Assembly (NCBI RefSeq): GCF_964355755.1
Contig: NC_092673.1
Span: forward strand, 4,154,001 to 4,218,000
DNA: 64,000 bases
DNA from: Antedon mediterranea
Taxonomy: Eukaryota; Animalia; Echinodermata
Direction: 5' to 3'
Shown here piece by piece: positions 29,615 through 53,078 of this stretch. Every line of letters starts with the position of its first letter. The first letter of the stretch is position 1. The notes beneath the pieces were generated by a model. That model had not been told where the DNA came from and did no database searches. It saw only the letters and a program-made list of their open reading frames with translations. A program made the translations under genes and the position numbers.

Positions 29615-31620
29615 GGATGCTAGTCAAGTCGCCCCATCGCAAAGTCGCCCCATACAAAGTCGCCCCTTACACAGTCGCCCCATCGCAAAGTCGCCCCAAA
29701 ACAAAGTCGCCCCGACACAGTCGCCCCATCGCAAAGTCGCCCCATCGCAAAGTCGCCCCAACGCAAAGTCGCCCCATCGCAAAGTCGCCCTAACACAAAG
29801 TCGCCCCAAAACGTTAAAAAAATAGTTTAAAAGTGCGTAAAATGTCGCAATGATACACAAAATAACACGGAACGTGTAGGCATAAAAGGGGAAGTCCCGC
29901 CATGTAGTCTCACAGGTCACATGATCATCCCCCATCATCATGAGAGGAAGCCCCCAACTAATCACTCCGCGCGCGGTCGCACTAACGTGCTAGCTCACCA
30001 CCGGAGGGAAACCCCCGTAATTACTCCGCCGTTGTCGCACTACCATACAACGCACCATCTGAAGATGGGGAAACCCCGCCGGAGTTTTACGATATCAGTC
30101 GCGTTCGAAATCGGTCGCGTTTAATTTTGGTCGCGATAAAATGATGTTATACGATCTAGATTATTTTTACTTTGGTCGATAAATATTTATTATTATCAGG
30201 TATATGATGAGAAAGATGTGTGCCTTCAAAAATGACAATTTGTAAACATAGTTTAAGATTATAGTATTATTCAGCATAATGTCATTTAACAGTACATAAT
30301 TATTTAAATGTGAAATATTTTATAGGGAACGTAGGCTACGTCTGTAACTTTTATTTTATATGCAACAAATTACGTAAAACAATTTATTTATAAACATTCA
30401 GTTTACTAATAGTATTACAATGAACATTGATTATAAGCCTGGAAAGGCAATCCCATCATTATATCCATTATAAAATTGCATCATATCACCACTATATGTC
30501 GTAAATGATGACGTGTGTGTATGTATTCGTCGTACGTCCGTGTACGTATTATTCCGTGCATCTTCACTGTCTTGTTTAATTTAAAATTAAATAAACACCC
30601 GATATGAGGATATTTATTAGGCATGAGATAATTAGAATGTTCTATAACCAAAAGGGTTGAAAAGAATTTCTTCAGTAAAATGATCATTCTGCTGTTGAAT
30701 ATAAAGCGACTCGCAATCTGAAACATTCTCTGAAACCAATCGGAGCTGCGCCTTCTGGTATCTGTTTCCTCACAGCTGCTACGACGTCTTTCTGCTGGCC
30801 GTCGGGGATTCCCCTTTTTAAAAAACACGCACACGATACGATGGTTTTCCATGGTCAAAATGTAGCGTACGATCATATCGGCGATGAAATCCTTTTTTTT
30901 TATTTCTTCATTTTGAAAAGTCATAATAAAATTAAATAACAACAGACACTTAACTTGTCAATAAATGCAAAGTGATCAATAAGTAGCCTATAACACTATT
31001 GTCTTACAACTACTATAAATCTATACGAAGGCCTACTACACATTTATATACTTATTATATTATCATAAAAAATGAGCTGGTAGGTTGAAGAAAGATTCGT
31101 AATTGTGGCTCTGGTAACTAATTTTAAAATCATATTAAATTAACATTTTCGAAACTATAAATCAGGGATAATCTTTTTAGAACTTTCAAACAAGGGACTG
31201 TTTTTTTAATGATTTCTAAAAAGCACATCACTCCATTAAAACCTGTAAAATAAAAATACAAATTATGTATATAATAGGATAAACATTATAATGTAGGCCT
31301 AGGCCTATACGACATTTAGCGCGACCAAAGTAACAACGCAATCGATATCAAACGCAACCGATATGATTAAAACAGCGTACTACTAGTAATAGCGGCGGCG
31401 CTTCATAGTCATACCGAAATAAAACCGTGGGCAACTTTGCGATAGGGCGACTTTGCGTTGGGGCGACTTTGCGATGGGGCGACTTTGCGATGGGGCGACT
31501 TTGTAATGGGGCGACTTTGCGATGGGGCGACTGTGCCGGGGCGACTTTGCGATGGGGCGACTTTGTATTGGGCGACTTTGTATGGGGCGACTTTGCGATG
31601 GGGCGACTTGACTGGATCCC
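29615..31620. mobile_element. Foldback-type DNA transposon (probably MULE/Mutator-derived, non-autonomous) with tandem-repeat TIRs
   Basis: Both ends are arrays of AAAGTCGCCCC(A) in inverted orientation. Termini are GGATGCTAGTCAAG / CTTGACTGGATCC. The flanking direct repeat is CTGTCATG (29607-29614, 31621-31628). A second inner inverted pair lies at about 30092-30143 / 31313-31362. Confidence 0.85.
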
Positions 31621-40840: not shown

Positions 40841-41064
40841 ATGTAATCATTTCGAGAGAGAGGGATTTTCCGTTATTGCTTTTAAGGTAAACATTATCGG
40901 TTGATTTTAGTATAAAAATGAGCGTGGTTTTACAAACTTCATTCATAACTTCATCGACGAGCATTGACTTACTTATTGTACTTCGAAGAGCAGAAGATAC
41001 CAGCGAACATCATACGTACAAGAAATTATTTACATTTACAAGAAATAACTATACTCAATATAAG
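40841..41064 (+). promoter_or_regulatory. Putative promoter and non-coding first exon of secreted gene A
   Basis: kB consensus GGGATTTTCC 40862-40871, TATAAAA 40911-40917, Inr-like TTCATTC at about 40939, and donor AAG|GTAACT at 41064/41065 joining the acceptor at 41538/41539 five nt before the ATG. Confidence 0.6.
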
Positions 41065-41543
41065 GTAACTATCGCAATATCTTGTCTATGCATTGTATCA
41101 TTTCTTTACGGTATTTAAACAAATAATAAAATGAAAACTTCACTGTTATTTGAAATACTGTATTTTCTAAATAAAATTCAATTTAAAAATTATGCCAATT
41201 GACTATTTATATGCATAGATTTTTTTTAAATACACTGTAGACCGATATGGGTTGGATTATTATTTTACTTATAATTCAATTGAAAATAATACCAATTGTT
41301 AAAATATATGTATGGATCTATATAGTTATTTTCAGGTGTAAAATTTTTTTTTTAATTCTGTAGTAACAAAGTCGTTTATTTAGGCCTAATAATTGTACAA
41401 TTATTTGTGTTTTAGTGATGATATTAAACTTGTATAAATCGGACATACTATGTGCATTATGTATGCAATAATACTAAATACATAATTCGAAATAAAAATA
41501 ATATATTAATATGATATATATTTTTTTACAATTTTCAGATACG

Positions 41544-43317
41544 ATGGCTCTTTTCAATATGACACACTGCATCATCAGTCTGCTGGGTGCATGCTTGTTA
41601 GTGGGTTCAATGCCTGTGTCCCCGACCACTGATGCTCCAATCCAGCTAAACAACGTCGATGACGCTAAAACGGCTGCCGAGAGATGGGAAAGAAATATTT
41701 ACGATTTCTATACAAGTTATGTAAGTCAATAATTTAATGTTTACTAACTAAATCTTAAATCGTAACTAGCCTATGTGCAAGATTGTATAATACAAAAGAC
41801 AAATGTAAAATTTAAACCATAGAAAAAAGAGTGAACTTTAATTTTAAAGATGGATGTACTCCTACAAAAGATTTTAAAAAAAACATTAAAGATATTTTGT
41901 CCCCTAAAAAATTTATATTTTGTCACCCTAAAAAATATATATTTTTAAAAATGCCAATTTTTAATGTCACATAATAGTTATTCACTTTGACCAAAAACTG
42001 GATCGAACAAAAAATGATTTAATGTAATTTAAAGCAAATAAATATTTAAATTGTCTGACGGACAGTGGTTTTTTGGTTAAAATTAACCGTTTTTTTTGTC
42101 TTTTTATAAGTGAAATCATTATTTTGTTTAATTTAACATTGTGATTTGCCAACAGATAAACAATCATACCGCCCTCTCTGCAACCTCTATCCAAAGTAAT
42201 AACATCTCCAAGCGTGTCGATGACTGTATCCTTCAATACAGGACAACCGCTCAGGTAAGATATACAATGTTTTTACATCTTTGCTCACCTTAGAATTATA
42301 CCGCTTTCACAATAAAGGCAAAACTCGGAAACACGCTCAGGTGTTTTGGTGTGAAAGGGGCCCAAGGAGTTTTGCACACTAAACTGCAAGGAACCCACGT
42401 TCATTGTAATTGTGTCTCATAATCGAATACGTTCTCGTTTGGCCCGGTTGCTCTCACTACATTTTAGAAAATAGCATATATATTGATTGTTTCCAATTCA
42501 TTGAGAATAATTTGCTTGTGTTTGTTTTTTAACAGAGTAATTTGGAAACACGTCTGGTAACATTGGTCAAATACTCGGTTAACATCACAACCCTGATCTA
42601 CATTGATGCTTACACAAGAACCACACTGTCCAATCTTGACAAAACAATGGAAAAGTTTGTAAGTTTTTATCACTAATTCTTCTTACCCTCATCTAATATT
42701 CTCATATAATTCCGTAACTTTCCTAATGAATATATACGATTACGAGTTTGTAAGGCTCCATAAGTAACGTTTCTTAGTAATATAATAACTATGTAACTAA
42801 CATTTTATTATTTATTTTAATTTTCCCAGCTTAAAGAAGACAACGTTAGTGTCTGTAACGTCATTGATGATGAACTTGCACCGCCGCTGTGTTTCGAGTC
42901 CTTTGAGGTACGTATTCTTATAAATAACTAAATATGAATAACTCCAGTGCCGTATAACGGCTATGTTACGGCTATGAGCGCTCACTGGCTAAACCCAGGG
43001 GCCCCTGAGTTTATGGTGCCTCAGACCTTATGGGTCACCTGAGAAGTGCCCAGAGGGCCGGGAAAACAGACATTAAAATATGTCGAAAAGGCTAAAAATG
43101 ACCGAGGCCTCAGGTATCTGCGTTACGCCACTTCTCGGACTCCTATCCATCTATAGCCCACAATGACAATTAAGGCCTATGTTTAATTTTATTGCAGACT
43201 GCCGTAGCTGAAGTAAAACAAAAATCGGAGCCCCTTGCTGTTGCATACTCTCTGCATATGCTACGAAGTGCCGCCGATGCCGTGTACAAACTAACCAGCT
43301 CATCTCAACTTTGTTAA
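41544..43317 (+). CDS. Novel secreted protein A (198 aa), candidate helical cytokine; 5 coding exons, all introns phase 0
   Basis: Exons 41544-41720 (177 nt; MALFNMTHCIISLLGACLLVGS signal + MPVSPTTDAPIQLNNVDDAKTAAERWERNIYDFYTSY), 42156-42254 (99), 42536-42658 (123), 42830-42907 (78), 43198-43317 (120, ends ...YSLHMLRSAADAVYKLTSSSQLC*). Splice sites are strong GT-AG and there are no stops. Gene structure is well supported; function is inferred. Confidence 0.85.
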
Positions 43318-44564
43318 AACGTATGGCATACTATATTGTAGACATAATATTCTATTTAAGATTATAAATTATTATATTTGTGGTAATTAAAGCATATTAT
43401 ATATGTATATATATATTTTTTAAATTCAGTGATACCATGGATACAACCATAATTTACGTGCGCGTGCAAACGATGTTAGGTGTTATCAGATTTTGAACAC
43501 GCACGTCAAATTTCGGTCTATTCGATGCATCACTGACATACGCTTGCATCAAGCGCACAACTAATTACAAACTATTTCTAGCTGCTCCCAACACAAACAC
43601 GTTTATTTGGACGTATTACGAAACATTTGCTCTGGTGCACCAATATACAAAAGGAACTAACCATTATTAGATGATTTTATCACGTATTGATAATTTGAAT
43701 GAATAACATAACATATAATAGCTACGTAATATGTACTTTTAAAACGATAATTGAAATAGTAGGCCTATAAAATATAAAATTATATAAGTTCCAATATTTA
43801 TACCATTTATTTGTTAATAATATTAACTATATATATCTGTATGTGTATATCCGTTAATGGATAATATACAGCGTTGAAGAAACTAGTACTCTATATTAGA
43901 CATGCGCAGTAGATCATACTGATCACGTATTTGTCGTATTTTCACGGCACGAGGTAATGTTTGCTGCCCAACGTTATGTTATATTGTTGTTGATATATAT
44001 TTGTCAGTTAGCGTTCTTTTTCTCAAAATCATGTTTTCATAGAGGTTCATAGCGGCAGTACTTTTGAGCTTCAAGTATTGTTTGTTATTTAGGACAAAAA
44101 TTCTTTTTCACATCGTCTAGCAAAACTCGGAGTCGAAAAAAAACCTACACACACCACCGGGCGTTTTGCAAGTTGTATGGAAAGTTTCCAGAGTTTTGCT
44201 AAACAATGTAAAAAAGATGTGCGTTGTTTTGTGTATCTGATTATGATCGGATTGATTGCTTTTTTGTTCTGTAATTATTATACTATTAAACAAACAAACA
44301 CTAGTATCATAATTGTTAGCTTAAAATTAGTTAAAATATATAAAGAAAGCTGAATATTATAGAGCTGCTGTGTTAATATTATTTAAATATTTTGCGATGT
44401 TGTCAGTCGCCTTGCATTTGATATTCATTGTTTAACTTGGCCTCGGTTAAATAAAATCATGTAAAATATATGTTGCCTTTTAAAAATCTTTTATTTTGTT
44501 TTGCTACAGATATTTTTTTCACCCAGAGTAGGAGTTTTTTAGGAATTAAATTATTAAAAACATA

Positions 44565-47473
44565 TAACCATAACATGCGCAGACCACATTATGTGATTCT
44601 GCGTATGTTACATTATTATATAGTAACCAGTTATGTTAAACACAAGTTTTTTTAAATGCAATTATTATGCGATAAAATTGCTCTATATGATCATATATTG
44701 CTTTATCATCATCTTATAGTACCATAGACACTTGTTATCACGACAAATAAAAGTGTCGAAAATTGGCCATTTTTGAAAAAATTCCTGTACTATAGTAAAG
44801 GGATTTTTTCGAAAAATGGCCAAAATATCAAGTTTTTTAAATTAAATTATTATGCGATAAAATTGCTCTATATGATCATATATTGGTTTATTATCATCTT
44901 ATAGTACCATTAGACATCTGTTATGTAACCACTTTTGACATAAATGGTTACTATAGCATAATAAACATGCGCAGAGTCGAATAATGGATTCTGCGCATGT
45001 CGATTGTGCTATAGTAACCATTTATGTCAAATATGGTTATGATAGCACAATTGATGCGCAGAACCCATTATTCGTCTCTGCGCATGTTTATTATGCAATA
45101 GTAACCATTTATGTCAAAAAATAAGGGGGTCGGAAATCGGCCATTTTTCAAAAGTTTCCCTGTACTATAGTACAGGGATTTGTTCAAAAAAATGGCAAAT
45201 TTTCGACCTATTTATTTTTCGATAAAACTGGTTACTATAGCACAATTAACATGCGCAGAACCCATTAGTCGACACTGCGCATGTTTATTATGCTATAGTA
45301 ACCATTTATGTCAAAAGTAAATGGTTATGATAGCACAATTGACATGCGCAGAACCCATTATTCGACTCTGCGCATGTTTATTATGCAATAGTAACCATTT
45401 ATGTCAAAAAATAAAAGGGTCGAAAATCGGCCATTTTTCAAAAATTTTCCTGTACTGTAGTACAGGGATTTTTCCAAAAAAATGGCCAATTTTCGACCTT
45501 TTTATTTTTCGATAAAACTGGTTACTATAGCACAATTAACATGCGCAGAACCCATTAGTCGACTCTGCGCATGTTTATTATGCTATAGTAACCATTTATG
45601 TCAAAAGTAACCACTTTAGACATAAATGGTTACTATAGCATAATAAACATGCGCAGAGTCGAATAATGGGTTCTGCGCATGTTAATTGTGCTATAGTAAC
45701 CATTTATGTCAAATATGGTTATGATAGCACAATTGACATGCGCAGAACCCATTAGTCGACTCTGCGCATGTTTATTATGCTATAGTAACCATTTATGTCA
45801 AAAGTAAATGGTTATGATAGCACAATTGACATGCGCAGAACCCATTATTCGACTCTGCGCATGTTTATTATGCAATAGTAACCATTTATGTCAAAAAATA
45901 AAAGGGTCGAAAATCGGCCATTTTTCAAAAATTTTCCTGTACTATAGTACAGGGATTTTTCCAAAAAAATGGCCAATTTTCGACCTTTTTATTTTTCGAT
46001 AAAACTGGTTACTATAGCACAATTAACATGCGCAGAACCCATTAGTCGACTCTGCGCATGTTTATTATGCTATAGTAACCATTTATGTCAAAAGTAACCA
46101 CTTTAGACATAAATGGTTACTATAGCATAATAAACATGCGCAGAGTCGAATAATAGGTTCTGCGCATGTTAATTGTGCTATAGTAACCATTTATATCAAA
46201 TATGGTTATGATAGCACAATTGACATGCGCAGAACCCATTATTGGACTCTGCGCATGTTTATTATGCAATAGTAACCGTTTATGTCAAAAAATAAGAGGG
46301 TCGGAAATCGGCCATTTTATGAAAATTTTCCTGTACTATAGTACAGGGATTTTTCAAAAAAATGGCCAATTTTCGACCTTTTTATTTTTCGATAAAACTG
46401 GTTACTATAGCACAATTGACATGCGCAGAACCCATTATTCGACTCTGCGCATGTTTATTATGCTATAGTAACCATTTATGTCAAAAGTGGTTCAAATATG
46501 GTTATGATAGCACAATTAACATGCGCAGAACCCATTATTCGACTCTGCGCATGTTTATTATGCTATAGTAACCATTTATGTCAAAAGTGGTTCAAATATG
46601 GTTATGATAGCACAATTAACATGCGCAGAACCCATTATTCGTCTCTGCGGATGTTTATTATGCAATAGTAACCATTTATGTCAAAAGTGGTTCAAATATG
46701 GTTATGATAGCACAATTGACATGCGCAGAACCCATTATTGGACTCTGCGCATGTTTATTATGCAATAGTAACCGTTTATGTCAAAAAATAAGAGGGTCGG
46801 AAATCGGCCATTTTTCGAAAATTTTTCTGTACTATAGTACAGGGATTTGTTAAAAAAAATGGCAAATTTTCGACCTTTTTATTTTTCGATAAAACTGGTT
46901 ACTATAGCTCAATTAACATGCGCAGAACCCATTAGTCGACTCTGCGCATGTTTATTATGGTATAGTAACCATTTATGTCAAAAGTAAATGGTTATGATAG
47001 CACAATTGACATGCGCAGAACCCATTATTCGACTCTGCGCATGTTTATTATGCAATAGTAACCATTTATGTCAAAAAATAAAAGGGTCGAAAATCGGCCA
47101 TTTTTCAAAAATTTTCCTGTACTATAGTACAGGGATTTTTTCAAAAAAATGGCCAATTTTCGACCTTTTTATTTTTCGATAAAACTGGTTACTATAGCAC
47201 AATTAACATGCCAGAACCCATTAGTCGACTCTGCGCATGTTTATTATGCTATAGTAACCATTTATGTCAAAAGTAACCACTTTAGACATAAATGGTTACT
47301 ATAGCATAATAAACATGCGCAGAGTTGAATAATGGGTTCTGCGCATGTCAATTGTGCTATAGTAACCATTTATGTCAAATATGGTTATGATAGCACAATT
47401 GACATGCTCTGAACCCATTATTCGTCTCTGCGCATGTTTATTATGCAATAGTAACCATTTATGTCAAAAAATA
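44565..47473. repeat. Complex higher-order satellite built from two hairpin/palindromic monomers in both orientations
   Basis: Monomer X is about 90 bp (TGGTTA..ATAGCACAATT.ACATGCGCAGAACCCATTATTCGACTCTGCGCATG..TAGTAACCA). Monomer Y is about 105 bp and palindromic, centred on GTACTATAGTAC. The higher-order period is 487 bp between 45321 and 45808. Confidence 0.92.
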
Positions 47474-47929
47474 AGCATATTGATCTAAACGTCGAGAAAC
47501 TCAACAGTTCTTTTCAGAATATGTGGTGTACTGCAAACTTTATAACAACAATATCATACTTGTTTGAAGTAATACTTACAATTAAATAGATTAATTTTGT
47601 TACTACAAATTATTTCTCATAAACGTCAGTAATAATGAGTGACGTATTTCCTTTTTACTTTTAATATAAAAATAATGCATATTTCTCTGCAAGGATGTTT
47701 ACTATAAGGTGGGTGTTAATATTAAAATATGATTCAATGACATAATTTTATACATCGTAAAATATATTCGTGTAATTTAAATTTTATTGAAGATAAATAT
47801 TGTGAAATACCATACTAGATTTCACTCTCAGCATTGTCAACCCTCTACCCACTCCCCAGTCACAATTGAATTGAGGGGTTGTTGGAAGTTCGCAAAATGA
47901 TGAGATACTGGTACTTATTTGAATGGGTT

Positions 47930-48220
47930 TCGTATTCGACTACAATGCTTATTCAACTTTGATACTTATTCGACTGTAATGCTTATTCAACTCCGGTACT
48001 TATTTAACTACATTTCTTATTCGGCTGCAATACCTATTCAACCCCGGTACTTATTCGACTGCAACGCTTTTTTTGACTTCGGTACTTTTTTGGCTGCATT
48101 TCTAATTCGGCTGAAATGCCTATTCAACCCCGGTACTTATTCGGCTACAATGCTTATTCAACCCCGGTACTTATTTGACTGCATTTCTTATTCGATTGCA
48201 ACGCTCATTCGGCTCAGTAT
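47930..48220. repeat. Degenerate short tandem repeat (CCGGTACTTATTCGACTGCAATGCTTATTCAACC-like)
   Basis: Recurrent CGGTACTTATT and TATTCG(A/G)CT subunits. Confidence 0.75.
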
Positions 48221-48545
48221 TTCAATAATTTACCGTAAAGGCAAATAAAAAAATACACCTAAACAATTGTTAACTTAAATTTTTAAATACATACATTGAA
48301 GGGAAAAGGGAGAGACAATAACGAATGGAACAAACAGAAAGTAAAATGTTCTATGTAAGTCACGGGTCGACGTAGCAATCGATATTTTAATTACCGTAAT
48401 CAATTAATACCGAAATTATTTTCTTTTAAAATGTAATTTTTTTACAACTTAAATCCAATACATAGCGCAAATTGAGTAATTGTATTTTTTTCTCATCTTT
48501 TTTTTGTCTTGTGTGAGTTCGTCCCACTTTATTAACACACTCTGT

Positions 48546-48612
48546 ATAGCATAGCATAGCATAGTATAGCATAGCATAGCATAGCATAGCATAGCATAGC
48601 ATAGCATAGCAT
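48546..48612. repeat. (ATAGC)n microsatellite
   Basis: Read directly. Confidence 0.95.
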
Positions 48613-48891
48613 ATTTTTTCCTCTCATTTATATGTTACAACGTTAAAAGTAGTTGTAATAAAAACATCTGCTGTATATACATAAAATGATTGATATTGAT
48701 GTTTTTAAAACCATATTTGCATTCGTTTTTTTACATTTTTAAAAAATGTATTCAAATATACCAAATAATTAACAAAATGGCAAAAAAAGACGATAAATAT
48801 TGATTAAAAACGTACTTTTCTCATCTTAAAAAAATGTTCATAGTGAAATAAATTAAAAAAAATAATAATATCTTTAGAAAAGGTACCGTAC

Positions 48892-48951
48892 AATAATAAT
48901 AATACTAATAATATTAATAATAATAATAGTAATAATAATAATAATAATAAT
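48892..48951. repeat. (AAT)n microsatellite
   Basis: Read directly; imperfect. Confidence 0.9.
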
Positions 48952-50389
48952 CACATCTGTTTAAATGAAGTATTAAAGTATTGAAAGATGTCAACAACAA
49001 TACACTCTTTATTGAATAAACCGAATCAGCGACGGTAAATGAAATATTTAAAAAAACATTAAAATATAACATACATACAAACGTGCATTTACTGACAATG
49101 TCGTCATGTGTAAATAAATTAATTTAAAACAAAAAATATGCTTTATTACCGAAAAATCCAATTGTAAAACGAATCTAAAAATACATTTAAACTTCGGTGT
49201 CTTTAGGAAAAATATATAGTCATAAAAAATCAAATTGTCAAAATAAATCGATATAGGCCCATTGCTACTAAATAATTATATAGTATAAGTATAATCTATA
49301 GTTATTGCACTATTACTTTCGACTACGGGTTATAATCAGGTAAATAATAAACCACCCACACTTCAATATGAAATAAAGAGAACGTTTAAATTAAACAAAA
49401 AAGAAAGTTGTTCTCAGGACATAAAATGATAATTGCTTAAGTCCAAATTGCAAAAACAAATCAATTAATAAAACCATCATCATAGAACTGTTACATAATA
49501 TAAATGTATTTTGTTTGTTACCATTTCCCATTGTAATTATTTTTAAAGAAATTAGGCCTATATATTATTTCAAAATATTTGGTGTATATAAACACAAACT
49601 GAACAGAGCAAACAACAAACATTGTTTACGAGTGAATGCGACTCATCATCAATCATTTGAATAATTATTTATTAATTAATTTATAACAGGTAGGTAACTG
49701 TTTACTATTTTCTGCATAATAAATAGTATACTGTATAAAATAGTCTTAATTTAAATTTAAAGATATATTGTCCCCCTAAAAAAATATTTTGTTACAAATT
49801 TGTTGTAGAATATGTAATTTGAATTTCACATAATAGTTATTCACTTTGATAAAAAATCGGATCAAAAATGATTTCCCAGAAAAAAATAAAATAAATAGTC
49901 AAATTGGTTGAATTTAACTGTTTATTTTGTCATTTTATAAGTGAAAACATTATTTTTTTCATTTTTTTTTCCTATGGAATGTGATCAACTTTGTTAAAAC
50001 TACAAAAATTGCCTATTCAAGTCTGATTTTATTAATCTTCATTTTTCATGTTTTTCGGAGAAAATACATCTTTAAGTTTGGTTTCCTTGGACGCGACGCA
50101 AGTACTTTAAAGCACCGCAATTTGACCAATCACAAGCGATGAAGCATCCGAACTGTCGATTATGATAGGTCAACTCACTTGCGTTGCGCGTCTACCCTCG
50201 TTGCGTCGCTTCCAAGTGGGAACCCCGCTTTAAGAAAAGCAATGCAATATCTATTATGGTCACTATGGAGGCAAATCGACTGACGATGTGTCTATGAAAC
50301 ACTGGAAAAAAGAATGGATGTTTTTTTTTTGAATTAGTGGCTTAGATGGCTTAGTAAACATATTATTATTGAGAGGGTTACACCCTACT

Positions 50390-50494
50390 GAAAGAAAACG
50401 AAATAAATATAAAATAAACAAAGTGATGTAATCATAATTTTAAACGATTTTCATTGGCTGTGCGTTCATTGACCCTGCCAGTTTATTATAAATA
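50390..50494 (+). promoter_or_regulatory. Putative promoter of secreted gene B
   Basis: IRF-like GAAAGAAAACGAAA 50390-50403, ATGTAATCAT 50426-50435, inverted CCAAT at about 50453, and TATAAATA 50487-50494, about 120 nt before the ATG. Confidence 0.5.
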
Positions 50495-50606
50495 CAACAC
50501 ACCAATAGACATACAAATTTACACATTGTCTTCTATTAATCAAAAATTGCAAAATTAAACATTGTTTCGTCTCTACTTCAGATATTTTAGTTTTTCCGAG
50601 AAAAAA

Positions 50607-53001
50607 ATGTTTTTACAGCTGGTATGTGTGCTAGTATTTGCATTGTCTGCATCTTCAAAGCCAATAAGTTCGTGTAGTCTCAGTGAAGGAGACTATTGGT
50701 TGACAAAACTCGATCAACTACACCAGTCATTAAGCAGTGAAGTAAGTAACTAATTAGGCCTGTGTGTGTAAGTTTAGTTACTGACATTATATATAAATAA
50801 TAATACTGTCAAATTATTGATACAATGCTCATATTCGGAACATGATCTCATAATCGCGTCGAGCATAGCTCATCGGCGAAAGTTCCGTATGTTTCAGTTG
50901 TATTAAAAATGTCTGGCGGGATTCGAACATGCGACCTCTCGCTTTACAGGGCGAGTATCATACCGTTAGACCACAGGAGAGCCATATACGGCATTATTAC
51001 AGATCTTCAACCACCATATACATTCTCTTATACAACAAACGACAGGTTTAATTTGTCTCTGTTGTGGTAGATAATGGCGGACACGTGAAATTCCTGCACT
51101 TTTAGGATTTAGACTAAGAATAGATAAGTCAAATAGCGATTTTAATTCGGGTTAAAACAAAATGTCTCGACATGAAACAATACAATTATATATTATATAT
51201 CTTTATATGTGCGATCTCGAATTTATGTCGTCGTGACGGGTAGGCACGCGCGCTCGCCTGCAACAAGCATCGTTGTCGATAAAAAAAACATTGTTTCTTA
51301 AATATTTTTGATTTCATTACAGAGGAACTGTGCTCCTCCTCCATGTGAGTTTGACTTGGATTCTTTTAATCAAACACCACAGGTAAGCATTTTGGCTGAT
51401 AATTTTAATTTACCAACATATAATAAATAAAAAACACTATTCTCCGAATATGTGGTGCATTCTATTTTAAGTTTTAAAAAAATGATCTCTACTATAAAAT
51501 AAAACTGTTAAGCATACGACTGTATATAATATTTTAAAATAATTGGGGTTTTTTCATCAACAGGAATCGGCGTACAGACAAACGGTTAACTTCGTTAAAA
51601 ACACAAACGACGTATTTAGCAGTTGGTTCAATCAATCGCAAACTTCTCGAAGTATAGGCAACTCATTGCAATCACTGGAAAGTCAAGTAAGAATTATGTC
51701 ATTCAGTTTCTTGTTAATATAATAGCATTAAGCCAAAATGTTTTCCTCTATCTCCTCCTAAGCTGCAAGTCCGATACTAGCGCCGTTCGAGTTGGGGCAC
51801 CTTTTAATTCCCTTTGTCCATTAAGCCGTAAAACGGAAAATGTGTACCAAAAATGTGTTATTTAGACCAATTACTTTGAAACTGCCGAATACTGCGGTAA
51901 TTCTCGGCTATTTTCATACGTCACAATTAAGTCACTCATGTCATTAGCAATATCGAGACAGCAGCACATGTGACATGTGTACTATATTACTGTATACTAT
52001 CTGTTTGATTTCCGAACATTAACATCATTATAAGATGGTGCCCGTCCATTGGTACGGCTTAGTTGAAATTTAAATGTTTTTTTTTCTTTCTGAAGCTACG
52101 GAATGCGCCTTCAAATTGTATTCAAACGGGAACGACGGCCACAGATATACAAGATAGTTTTACGGTATGTTTCACACATCTGAAAACTTTTTTTTATAGC
52201 ATTAAAGCTTGGTTCCCACTAGGACGTAACGCAAGGACGTAAACGCAACGCAAGCGTTTTAACCAATGACAAGCGAAGTTATAGACAGTTAGCAATCACA
52301 AGCGAATAAGTCATCGCTTGTGATTGGTCAATTCACTTGCGTTGCGTTACGTCCTTGTGTTGCGTCGCTAGTGGGAACCACGTTTTAAGCTTGGTTCCCA
52401 CTAGAACGTAACGCAAGGACGTAAACGCAACGCATGCGTTTTAACCAATGACAAGCGAAGTTATAGACAGTTGGCAATCACAAGCGAATAAGTCATCGCT
52501 TGTGATTGGTCAATTCACTTGCGTTGCGTTACGTCCTTGTGTTGCGTCGCTAGTGGGAACTAGAACGTAACGCAAGGACGTAAACGCAACGCATGCGTTT
52601 TAACCAATGACAAACGAAGTTATAGACAGTTAGCAATCACAAGAGAATAAGCCATCGCTTGTGATTGGTCAATTCACTTGCGTTGCGTTACGTCCTTGTG
52701 TTGCATCGCTAGTGGGAACCACGCTCTTGAAGTACCATCTCACGTACACAGAGATAAGCATTGTGCAAATTTCTGCAACAATTTGCGAAGTTATCATGGT
52801 CATTTTGTAGGCATTATGCGTGTAAACTGTAAAGTCAAGTTATCATTGATTGAAATTCATGTATTTATCAAAAATAATAATCCTTTTAATAAATGTTGTT
52901 TGTTACAGTGTATACAAAACATGACGGTAACTGAACTAGGCTGCATCATGAGAACACAACTTCGAGTGATAAAACGATTGGTTTTCAATGTTATACCGTA
53001 A
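50607..53001 (+). CDS. Novel secreted protein B (159 aa), candidate helical cytokine; 5 coding exons, all introns phase 0
   Basis: Exons 50607-50741 (135 nt; MFLQLVCVLVFALSASS signal + KPISSCSLSEGDYWLTKLDQLHQSLSSE), 51323-51382 (60; RNCAPPPCEFDLDSFNQTPQ), 51564-51686 (123), 52096-52164 (69; LRNAPSNCIQTGTTATDIQDSFT), 52909-53001 (93; CIQNMTVTELGCIMRTQLRVIKRLVFNVIP*). Splice sites are GT-AG and there are six mature Cys. Function is inferred. Confidence 0.85.
50911..50980 (-). mobile_element. tRNA-derived SINE head or tRNA pseudogene in gene B intron 1
   Basis: Minus strand TGGTCTAACGG (A-box), CTCGC..GCGAG stem and GTTCGAATCCCG (B-box); the acceptor stem is poor. Confidence 0.6.
52206..52724. 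mobile_element. Three head-to-tail copies of MITE family B in gene B intron 4
   Basis: Near-identical palindromic units of about 165-180 bp start at about 52206, 52388 and 52560; the third lacks the outer left TIR. Confidence 0.9.
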
Positions 53002-53078
53002 GAATACGTCATACCGTAAGCATACGTCATACCGTACAAATACGTCATAGCGTACGTCATATCGTAAGAATACGTCAC
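52993..53078. repeat. 18-bp tandem repeat (ATACCGTAAGAATACGTC) overlapping the gene B stop codon
   Basis: About 5 units, one of them truncated. Confidence 0.85.

Follow-up and report, generated by a model that had tools for sequence, protein, structure and literature searches.

Genes of the IL-10 family, of IFN-lambda and of the fish interferons are described, in the available portions of the sources, with a five-exon layout in which the introns lie in phase 0 (PMC12652433, PMC5723907, PMC4929537). A filter for this 0-0-0-0 pattern recovered interferon-like genes from lampreys, from hagfish and from lancelets and, in the accessible part of the report, from no other invertebrates; the words 'crinoid' and 'echinoderm' are absent from its main text (10.64898/2026.05.30.728932). 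Here we describe two genes of this architecture, A and B, which lie in tandem on a 64,000-nucleotide stretch of the genome of the crinoid Antedon mediterranea (assembly GCF_964355755.1, contig NC_092673.1, positions 4,154,001 to 4,218,000; hereafter the window, within which all positions are given). On the strength of their sequence and exon layout, we think it reasonably likely, with a probability of roughly 0.6, that the product of each is a secreted cytokine with a helical-bundle fold, whose signal would pass by way of fibronectin-type cytokine receptors to JAK/STAT.

The class I cytokines provide the other close comparison. In the exon–helix map available for IL-4/13 of shark, gar and amphibian, a 'helices B and C' exon measures 120–129 bp, and the vertebrate class I genes in that part of the source have three phase-0 introns, not four (PMC4905449). 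For echinoderms, JAK, STAT and an IL6R-like receptor have been reported, and the same source, as far as it is available, records no IL-6 in invertebrates (PMC13203501). On an older view, cytokine receptor signalling is missing from the sea urchin (PMC3296744), and PMC9465101 cites work of 1996 that reported an IL-6-like molecule from a starfish. The interferon-like ligands of amphioxus show low template modelling (TM) scores to vertebrate interferons in the portion available of a further report (10.64898/2026.08.17.745176).

Gene structure and probable common origin of the tandem pair

The coding parts of the two genes, as predicted from the DNA, are arranged as follows.

41544-43317, + strand: gene A, five coding exons, 198 aa
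41544..41720, + strand: gene A coding exon 1 (177 nt), with a signal-like stretch and the first of the predicted helices
42156..42254, + strand: gene A exon 2 (99 nt), with a loop and the second of the predicted helices, 1 Cys
42536..42658, + strand: gene A exon 3 (123 nt), a predicted pair of helices, 0 Cys
42830..42907, + strand: gene A exon 4 (78 nt), long acidic loop, 2 Cys
43198..43317, + strand: gene A exon 5 (120 nt including the stop), short helix, last long helix and C-terminal Cys, the helices being predicted
50607-53001, + strand: gene B, five coding exons, 159 aa
50607..50741, + strand: gene B coding exon 1 (135 nt), signal-like stretch, 1 mature Cys, predicted amphipathic helix
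51323..51382, + strand: gene B exon 2 (60 nt), Pro-rich loop, 2 Cys, size equal to that of IL-10 exon 2
51564..51686, + strand: gene B exon 3 (123 nt), amphipathic in two segments, with a weak likeness to IL-10 helix D, 0 Cys
52096..52164, + strand: gene B exon 4 (69 nt; 66 nt in IL-10), 1 Cys, weak intron-anchored match to IL-10 exon 4
52909..53001, + strand: gene B exon 5 (93 nt including the stop), 2 Cys, strongly amphipathic predicted last helix

All coding introns, four in each gene, are of the GT-AG type and lie in phase 0, and the frame is open through to the stop. Scored with a generic splice matrix against a background of 3717 GT and 3124 AG dinucleotides of the + strand, all 16 splice sites of the pair stand at the 90.6th percentile or higher. 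An unguided search of both strands for an ATG with a hydrophobic start followed by four phase-0 introns returned B (score 38.2) and A (30.2), at their exact coordinates, as its two best chains; the next chain scored 13.2. The same search in 40 Markov-simulated windows reached 18.8 at best and yielded no chain whatsoever in 30 of them. These results confirm all ten exons, with the sizes and phases given in an earlier note made from the letters of this DNA, and A and B are real genes with a structure beyond chance. When phase and intron number were left free, the best chain of B was unchanged, and that of A joined exons 1–4 to another 3' end (44093-44218 and 44527-44655); under this crude scoring, the ending at 43198-43317 was absent among the four chains listed.

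The RefSeq record XP_071949046.1 ('uncharacterized protein', Antedon mediterranea) corresponds to gene A, with the same five exons and 11 additional N-terminal residues. As the model may be ab initio, it is no proof that A is expressed. Its start lies 11 codons upstream (41511-41543), so that the coding sequence crosses a strong splice acceptor. We prefer the downstream ATG at 41544, which gives a better signal-like start, and regard the annotated one as probably mistaken. Exon 1 of gene B matched no protein record (none of five candidates), so B is probably unannotated. Contigs from one sequencing run, X1, which had been guessed to be RNA, cross the exon–intron borders unspliced, in the manner of DNA; no joint at a predicted intron stands among the matches listed for any run, and the contigs are uninformative on expression. 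Variant rows from the DNA runs hold no indels in the exons of B, and the depletion of variants in the exons of A (2 of 20 single-nucleotide rows, 0 of 8 indel places) is not significant.

In both predicted proteins, the strongest 19-residue hydrophobic window is N-terminal (1.94 in A, against at most 1.21 elsewhere; 1.72 in B, against at most 0.81 elsewhere). With this signal-like start, the lengths of 198 and 159 aa fit the criterion of about 150–200 aa for secreted class II cytokines. The mature proteins have four cysteines in A and six in B, and N-glycosylation sites are present in both.

Exon 3 measures 123 nt in each gene, and its ungapped alignment contains six identical residues; here, and in the motifs at the ends of exon 4, the earlier note had read the letters correctly. 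Its further claim that the genes are very diverged paralogues fares less evenly. The ungapped exon-3 alignment stands out from plain shuffles (p=0.0008) and from shuffles that keep the hydrophobic pattern (p=0.01). A different offset in A, however, gives B exon 3 a slightly better score (19 vs 16), and MAFFT chose that offset too. Alignments of the whole proteins do not reach significance (p=0.24 local, 0.13 global). The exon-wise sum gives p=0.04, and the B exons could not be placed on A by MAFFT. Given the shared architecture, the equal exon 3 and the tandem position, we hold a common origin of A and B to be very probable, presumably as old tandem duplicates, with thin support from the sequences themselves.

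Two details of the 3' regions deserve mention. Between the genes, 44093-44218 (+) is a 126-nt open stretch preceded by AG and followed by GT, in phase 0 at both ends; it could be the remnant of a third paralogue, an alternative exon of A or part of a mobile element. The stop codon of B lies within the first unit of an 18-bp tandem repeat (52993-53054) that also carries a weak donor, and B may have a sixth exon beyond this repeat.

Comparison with known cytokines and predicted structure

Our comparators were viral IL-10 genes (A3, L022 and L023 among them) and one viral IL-6, and the comparisons, chosen after the sequences had been seen, are weak tests. Both genes resemble the IL-10 family in their signal-like start, their five coding exons and the four introns in phase 0, and B also in having cysteines in exons 1 and 4; B differs by extra cysteines in exons 2 and 5, and A by the absence of a sequence match. 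The viral IL-10 in L023 (516-1381, +) keeps five exons and four short phase-0 introns of the host type, with exons of 180/60/153/66/105 nt, which makes it a convenient natural yardstick for how an IL-10 gene is laid out. Exon 2 of B is identical to it in size (60 nt) and exon 4 comes within one codon (69 vs 66 nt), for which the rough joint chance is 7e-4 under an assumed length distribution and uncorrected for the number of families that could be compared. Exon 3 of B, however, is ten codons shorter (123 vs 153 nt). The L023 exon 3 carries a cysteine near its start and one at its end, a pair that is absent from exon 3 of both A and B. Judged by this exon, with its 123 nt rather than 153 and its lack of cysteine, neither gene is IL-10 itself.

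A profile built from 10 viral IL-10s scores 3.5 bits on B, a value reached by 18 of 2000 plain, 32 of 2000 pattern-keeping and 24 of 2000 reversed shuffles. The match is colinear, profile positions 106-153 falling on residues 74-119 of mature B, the region of helices D and E in the lettering used for IL-10. On A, the profile remains at chance level (454 of 2000 shuffles). In the PDB, it finds IL-10, -19, -20, -22 and -24, with no interferon among its 26 matches at E<=10; because it misses interferons too, failing it does not exclude membership in class II. When alignments to IL-10 were anchored at the introns, B gave p=0.02 for exon 3, p=0.01 for exon 4 and p=0.056 for the five-exon sum, with nothing in exons 1, 2 and 5. 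Exon 4 against its IL-10 counterpart ranged from p 0.006 to 0.09 over five references. Over the intron-anchored tests, right-exon pairs were ahead of wrong-exon ones by no more than 5 of 30 to 11 of 120. With hhalign, the viral IL-10 alignment matched neither A nor exon 3 of B.

The intron-containing interferons (fish type I, IFN-lambda, and the IFN-like genes of lamprey and lancelet) share with A and B the five-exon 0-0-0-0 structure and the occurrence in tandem clusters. They are likewise secreted helical proteins of 150–200 aa that have diverged too far for sequence search, properties that are predicted for A and B. The CAWE motif of these interferons is absent from exon 5 of both genes. 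So far, such interferons have been reported in chordates only, whereas A and B come from an echinoderm. The cysteine spacing of B, over exons 1, 2, 4 and 5, presumably resembles that of type I and lambda interferons. Six cysteines are recorded for IFN-lambda3 in the available part of PMC3610868.

Likeness to the class I cytokines (IL-6/LIF/CNTF, leptin, Unpaired and IL-4/13) lies in the phase-0, exon-by-helix layout with a two-helix exon of 120–129 nt. If the predicted helices are right, introns 1–3 match the class I phase-0 introns after helix A, the AB loop and helix C; A and B differ in having one phase-0 intron more, which separates the loop from the last helix. Among class I genes, IL-3 and IL-21 are exceptions with five exons. 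From its C-terminal loop through the short helix to the last one, A runs colinear with viral IL-6, to which its last 45 residues align nearly gap-free. For A, the IL-6 signal lies at the border of significance (global z 1.8, p 0.04-0.05, rising to 0.12 at other gap costs; none in local alignment); for B, it is absent. The cysteine at the start of exon 4 and the C-terminal cysteine of A recall leptin.

Structure was predicted for gene A with AlphaFold2 in single-sequence mode, in one run with the whole protein and one with the mature protein. The models are all-helical, with six helices that track the exons, at a predicted local distance difference test (pLDDT) score of 41. Five helices of long to medium length agree between the runs (residues 38-62, 73-90, 95-118, 158-165 and 172-193), and the fourth of the six spans 123-135 in one run and just 130-133 in the other. 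With exon borders at residues 59/60, 92/93, 133/134 and 159/160, this low-confidence model would place helix 1 on exon 1, a loop and helix 2 on exon 2, two helices on exon 3, a loop on exon 4, and a short helix and the last helix on exon 5. Its better-scored part is a plain three-helix bundle, and the up-up-down-down four-helix topology of class I did not emerge from these low-confidence models. Fold searches with the A models, five against the PDB and one against BFVD, returned generic bundles and no convincing cytokine, the weak Foldseek rows including CNTF and prolactin (E 1.9-3.7, TM < 0.3). At a pLDDT of 41 such searches are uninformative, and the absence of a cytokine among the results is no evidence; the A models neither show nor exclude a cytokine fold. 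B shows high helical hydrophobic moments where exons 1 and 4 end, on either end of exon 3 and within exon 5, peaks that fall in the same exons as the predicted helices of A.

Homologue searches returned next to nothing besides A itself. Against 1.84 billion representatives, phmmer found no homologue of A other than itself; 1 of 124 candidates passed for the whole protein and 1 of 8, again A, for exon 1. Neither A nor any of the ten single exons of A and B matched Pfam, and sequence searches of the PDB gave nothing for A and, for four of the five B exons, merely a repeat-protein artefact and an unrelated small domain. All feature scores in the ESM Atlas were below 0.9, with structure TM <= 0.43; the nearest feature neighbours were unnamed arthropod clusters and DUF725, at 0.82-0.87 and so under the 0.9 mark. 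By these searches, A is an orphan gene of Antedon. A metagenome scan passed 1 of 137 stretches, a bacterial-type metabolic gene with 11 residues in common, which we take as chance. Titles and abstract openings in the literature, in a search that lay outside most subscription journals, contained no crinoid helical cytokine gene.

Competing explanations and significance

The interpretation in the earlier note is supported in part: the view of A and B as secreted, helical ligands that diverge fast and have a cytokine-type gene architecture withstood all tests made here. The note also took the five-exon phase-0 layout for the hallmark of class II cytokines, but by itself this pattern lacks such specificity. 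In the accessible part of the 2026 screen, 132 lamprey genes have the 0-0-0-0 pattern, of which 14 are short and secreted and one of these, the interferon, is helical (10.64898/2026.05.30.728932), and phase-0 introns with an exon 3 of 120–129 nt fit class I too, as far as PMC4905449 is available. The cytokine reading falls short of proof: A yielded no confident model (pLDDT 41), the fold searches gave no convincing cytokine, and the IL-10 exon-3 cysteine pair is absent. In its favour stand the predicted helices of A that track the exons, the IL-10-like exon sizes of B, its weak profile match and a kappaB site beside the putative TATA box of A. A serious if still improbable explanation is that A and B are secreted helical proteins particular to their lineage and without kinship to cytokines (carrier, matrix, defence or gamete proteins), the intron pattern being a coincidence that both genes inherited. 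The lack of any Pfam, PDB or protein homologue, the ordinary antiparallel bundles of the A models and the arthropod and DUF725 clusters among the ESM neighbours all agree with it; as paralogues, the genes are also a single draw of the phase pattern, and 13 of the 14 short secreted lamprey genes are not cytokines. Those 13, however, were excluded in that report, as available, because they are non-helical; exon sizes and predicted helix positions here fit the cytokine scheme exon by exon, and the IL-10 profile score of B survives pattern-keeping shuffles. It is very improbable that B is a pseudogene that stays silent, or that splice-like sites make up its chain by chance: its exon 1 has no protein record and its stop overlaps the tandem repeat, but in the unguided search it scores higher than A, which RefSeq annotates, it turns up again when the phases are left free, and it has an intact frame and exons free of indel rows.

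The preferred reading, helical cytokines, is divided within itself, class II taking about half of its probability, class I most of the rest and other helical cytokines the remainder. B leans to the IL-10/interferon side and A weakly to the IL-6 side. Class II for both genes, with CRFB-type receptors and an interferon-like or anti-inflammatory programme, agrees with the five exons and their four introns in phase 0, the IL-10-sized exons 2 and 4 of B, its weak profile and exon-4 matches, and the six helices predicted for A. It is unlikely taken singly: A has no IL-10 signal, exon 3 no cysteine, the fifth predicted helix of A sits at the start of exon 5 and not in exon 4, and two folded sea urchin proteomes contained no interferon fold according to the available part of 10.64898/2026.05.30.728932. 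Class I for both (IL-6/LIF/leptin/Unpaired, or short-chain for B), acting through a gp130- or Domeless-like receptor, we consider rather doubtful. The 123-nt exon 3 with two predicted helices would correspond to the exon for helices B and C, A runs colinear with viral IL-6 over its C-terminal third, the weak Foldseek rows include CNTF and prolactin, and an IL6R-like gene has been reported for echinoderms. Yet all these signals are at noise level, and A and B have four phase-0 introns to the three of the vertebrate genes.

Should the cytokine reading be right, the genes would be transcribed from TATA promoters, that of A beside a kappaB site, and immune challenge or stress may induce them. The proteins would be secreted and fold into a helical bundle stabilised by disulfides among the four or six mature cysteines. 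Each might then bind and dimerise two fibronectin-type receptor chains and so activate JAK/STAT in coelomocytes or regenerating tissue, by analogy with the vertebrate cytokines and fly Unpaired. Both genes are real and orphan, and they make good, testable candidates for the JAK/STAT ligands of echinoderms; should they be helical cytokines, they would be named, expressible candidates for the missing ligand in crinoids. Proteome-based screens can miss genes such as B, since it seems to have no protein record. An unlikely but far-reaching possibility is that this echinoderm pair belongs to class II, whose members would then extend beyond the chordates for the first time. Signalling of the interferon type would in that event date back to the deuterostome ancestor, contradicting the 2026 screen, which in its available part limits the type to chordates (10.64898/2026.05.30.728932). 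B with its IL-10-like exon sizes and presumed interferon-like cysteine spacing, and A with its IL-6-like traits, might in that case preserve a stage near the split of classes I and II.

Upstream regions, neighbours and repeats

Three features precede the coding exons.

40862..40871, + strand: NF-kappaB consensus site (GGGATTTTCC) of putative function, whose end lies 39 bp ahead of the putative TATA box of A
40911..41064, + strand: putative TATA box (40911) and putative non-coding first exon of A, proposed from DNA alone
49585..49689, + strand: putative TATA box and putative non-coding first exon of B, likewise proposed

The putative 5' intron of A runs from a donor at 41064 (98.3rd percentile) to an acceptor at 41538 (98.4th), 5 nt before the ATG, and that of B from a donor at 49689 (99.9th) to an acceptor at 50581 (99.3rd), 25 nt before the ATG. 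Because each ATG stands just behind a strong acceptor, with a donor and a TATA-like box 0.5–0.9 kb upstream, both genes probably carry an additional non-coding first exon. The kappaB consensus occurs at six distinct places in the window, which corresponds to a chance of about 2% per 200 bp, uncorrected for the seven motifs scanned, and the site at A is weak support for an immune role. Four of the six places cluster at 29889-30814, upstream of a Sel1-repeat gene, among GC-rich short tandem repeats. Of three STAT-type sites near B, two were discounted because they are located in high-copy repeats. ATTTA motifs of AU-rich elements in the 3' regions (4 and 6 per 600 nt) are at the background of the window (mean 3, 90th percentile 6).

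The pair is flanked by the Sel1-repeat gene (+) on one side and by a GDA1/CD39 nucleoside-phosphatase gene (-) on the other, flanks for which the earlier note gives the names LRP2BP and ENTPD4; an SH3 gene lies further upstream. Between A and B, 44570-47480 is an array of about 2.9 kb made of palindromic units of about 90–100 bp, some of them inverted, with higher-order repeats at periods of 290 and 487 bp. Intron 4 of B holds about three copies (52205-52730) of a miniature inverted-repeat element of very high copy number, and a relative of the same element lies in the putative 5' intron of B (50080-50230).

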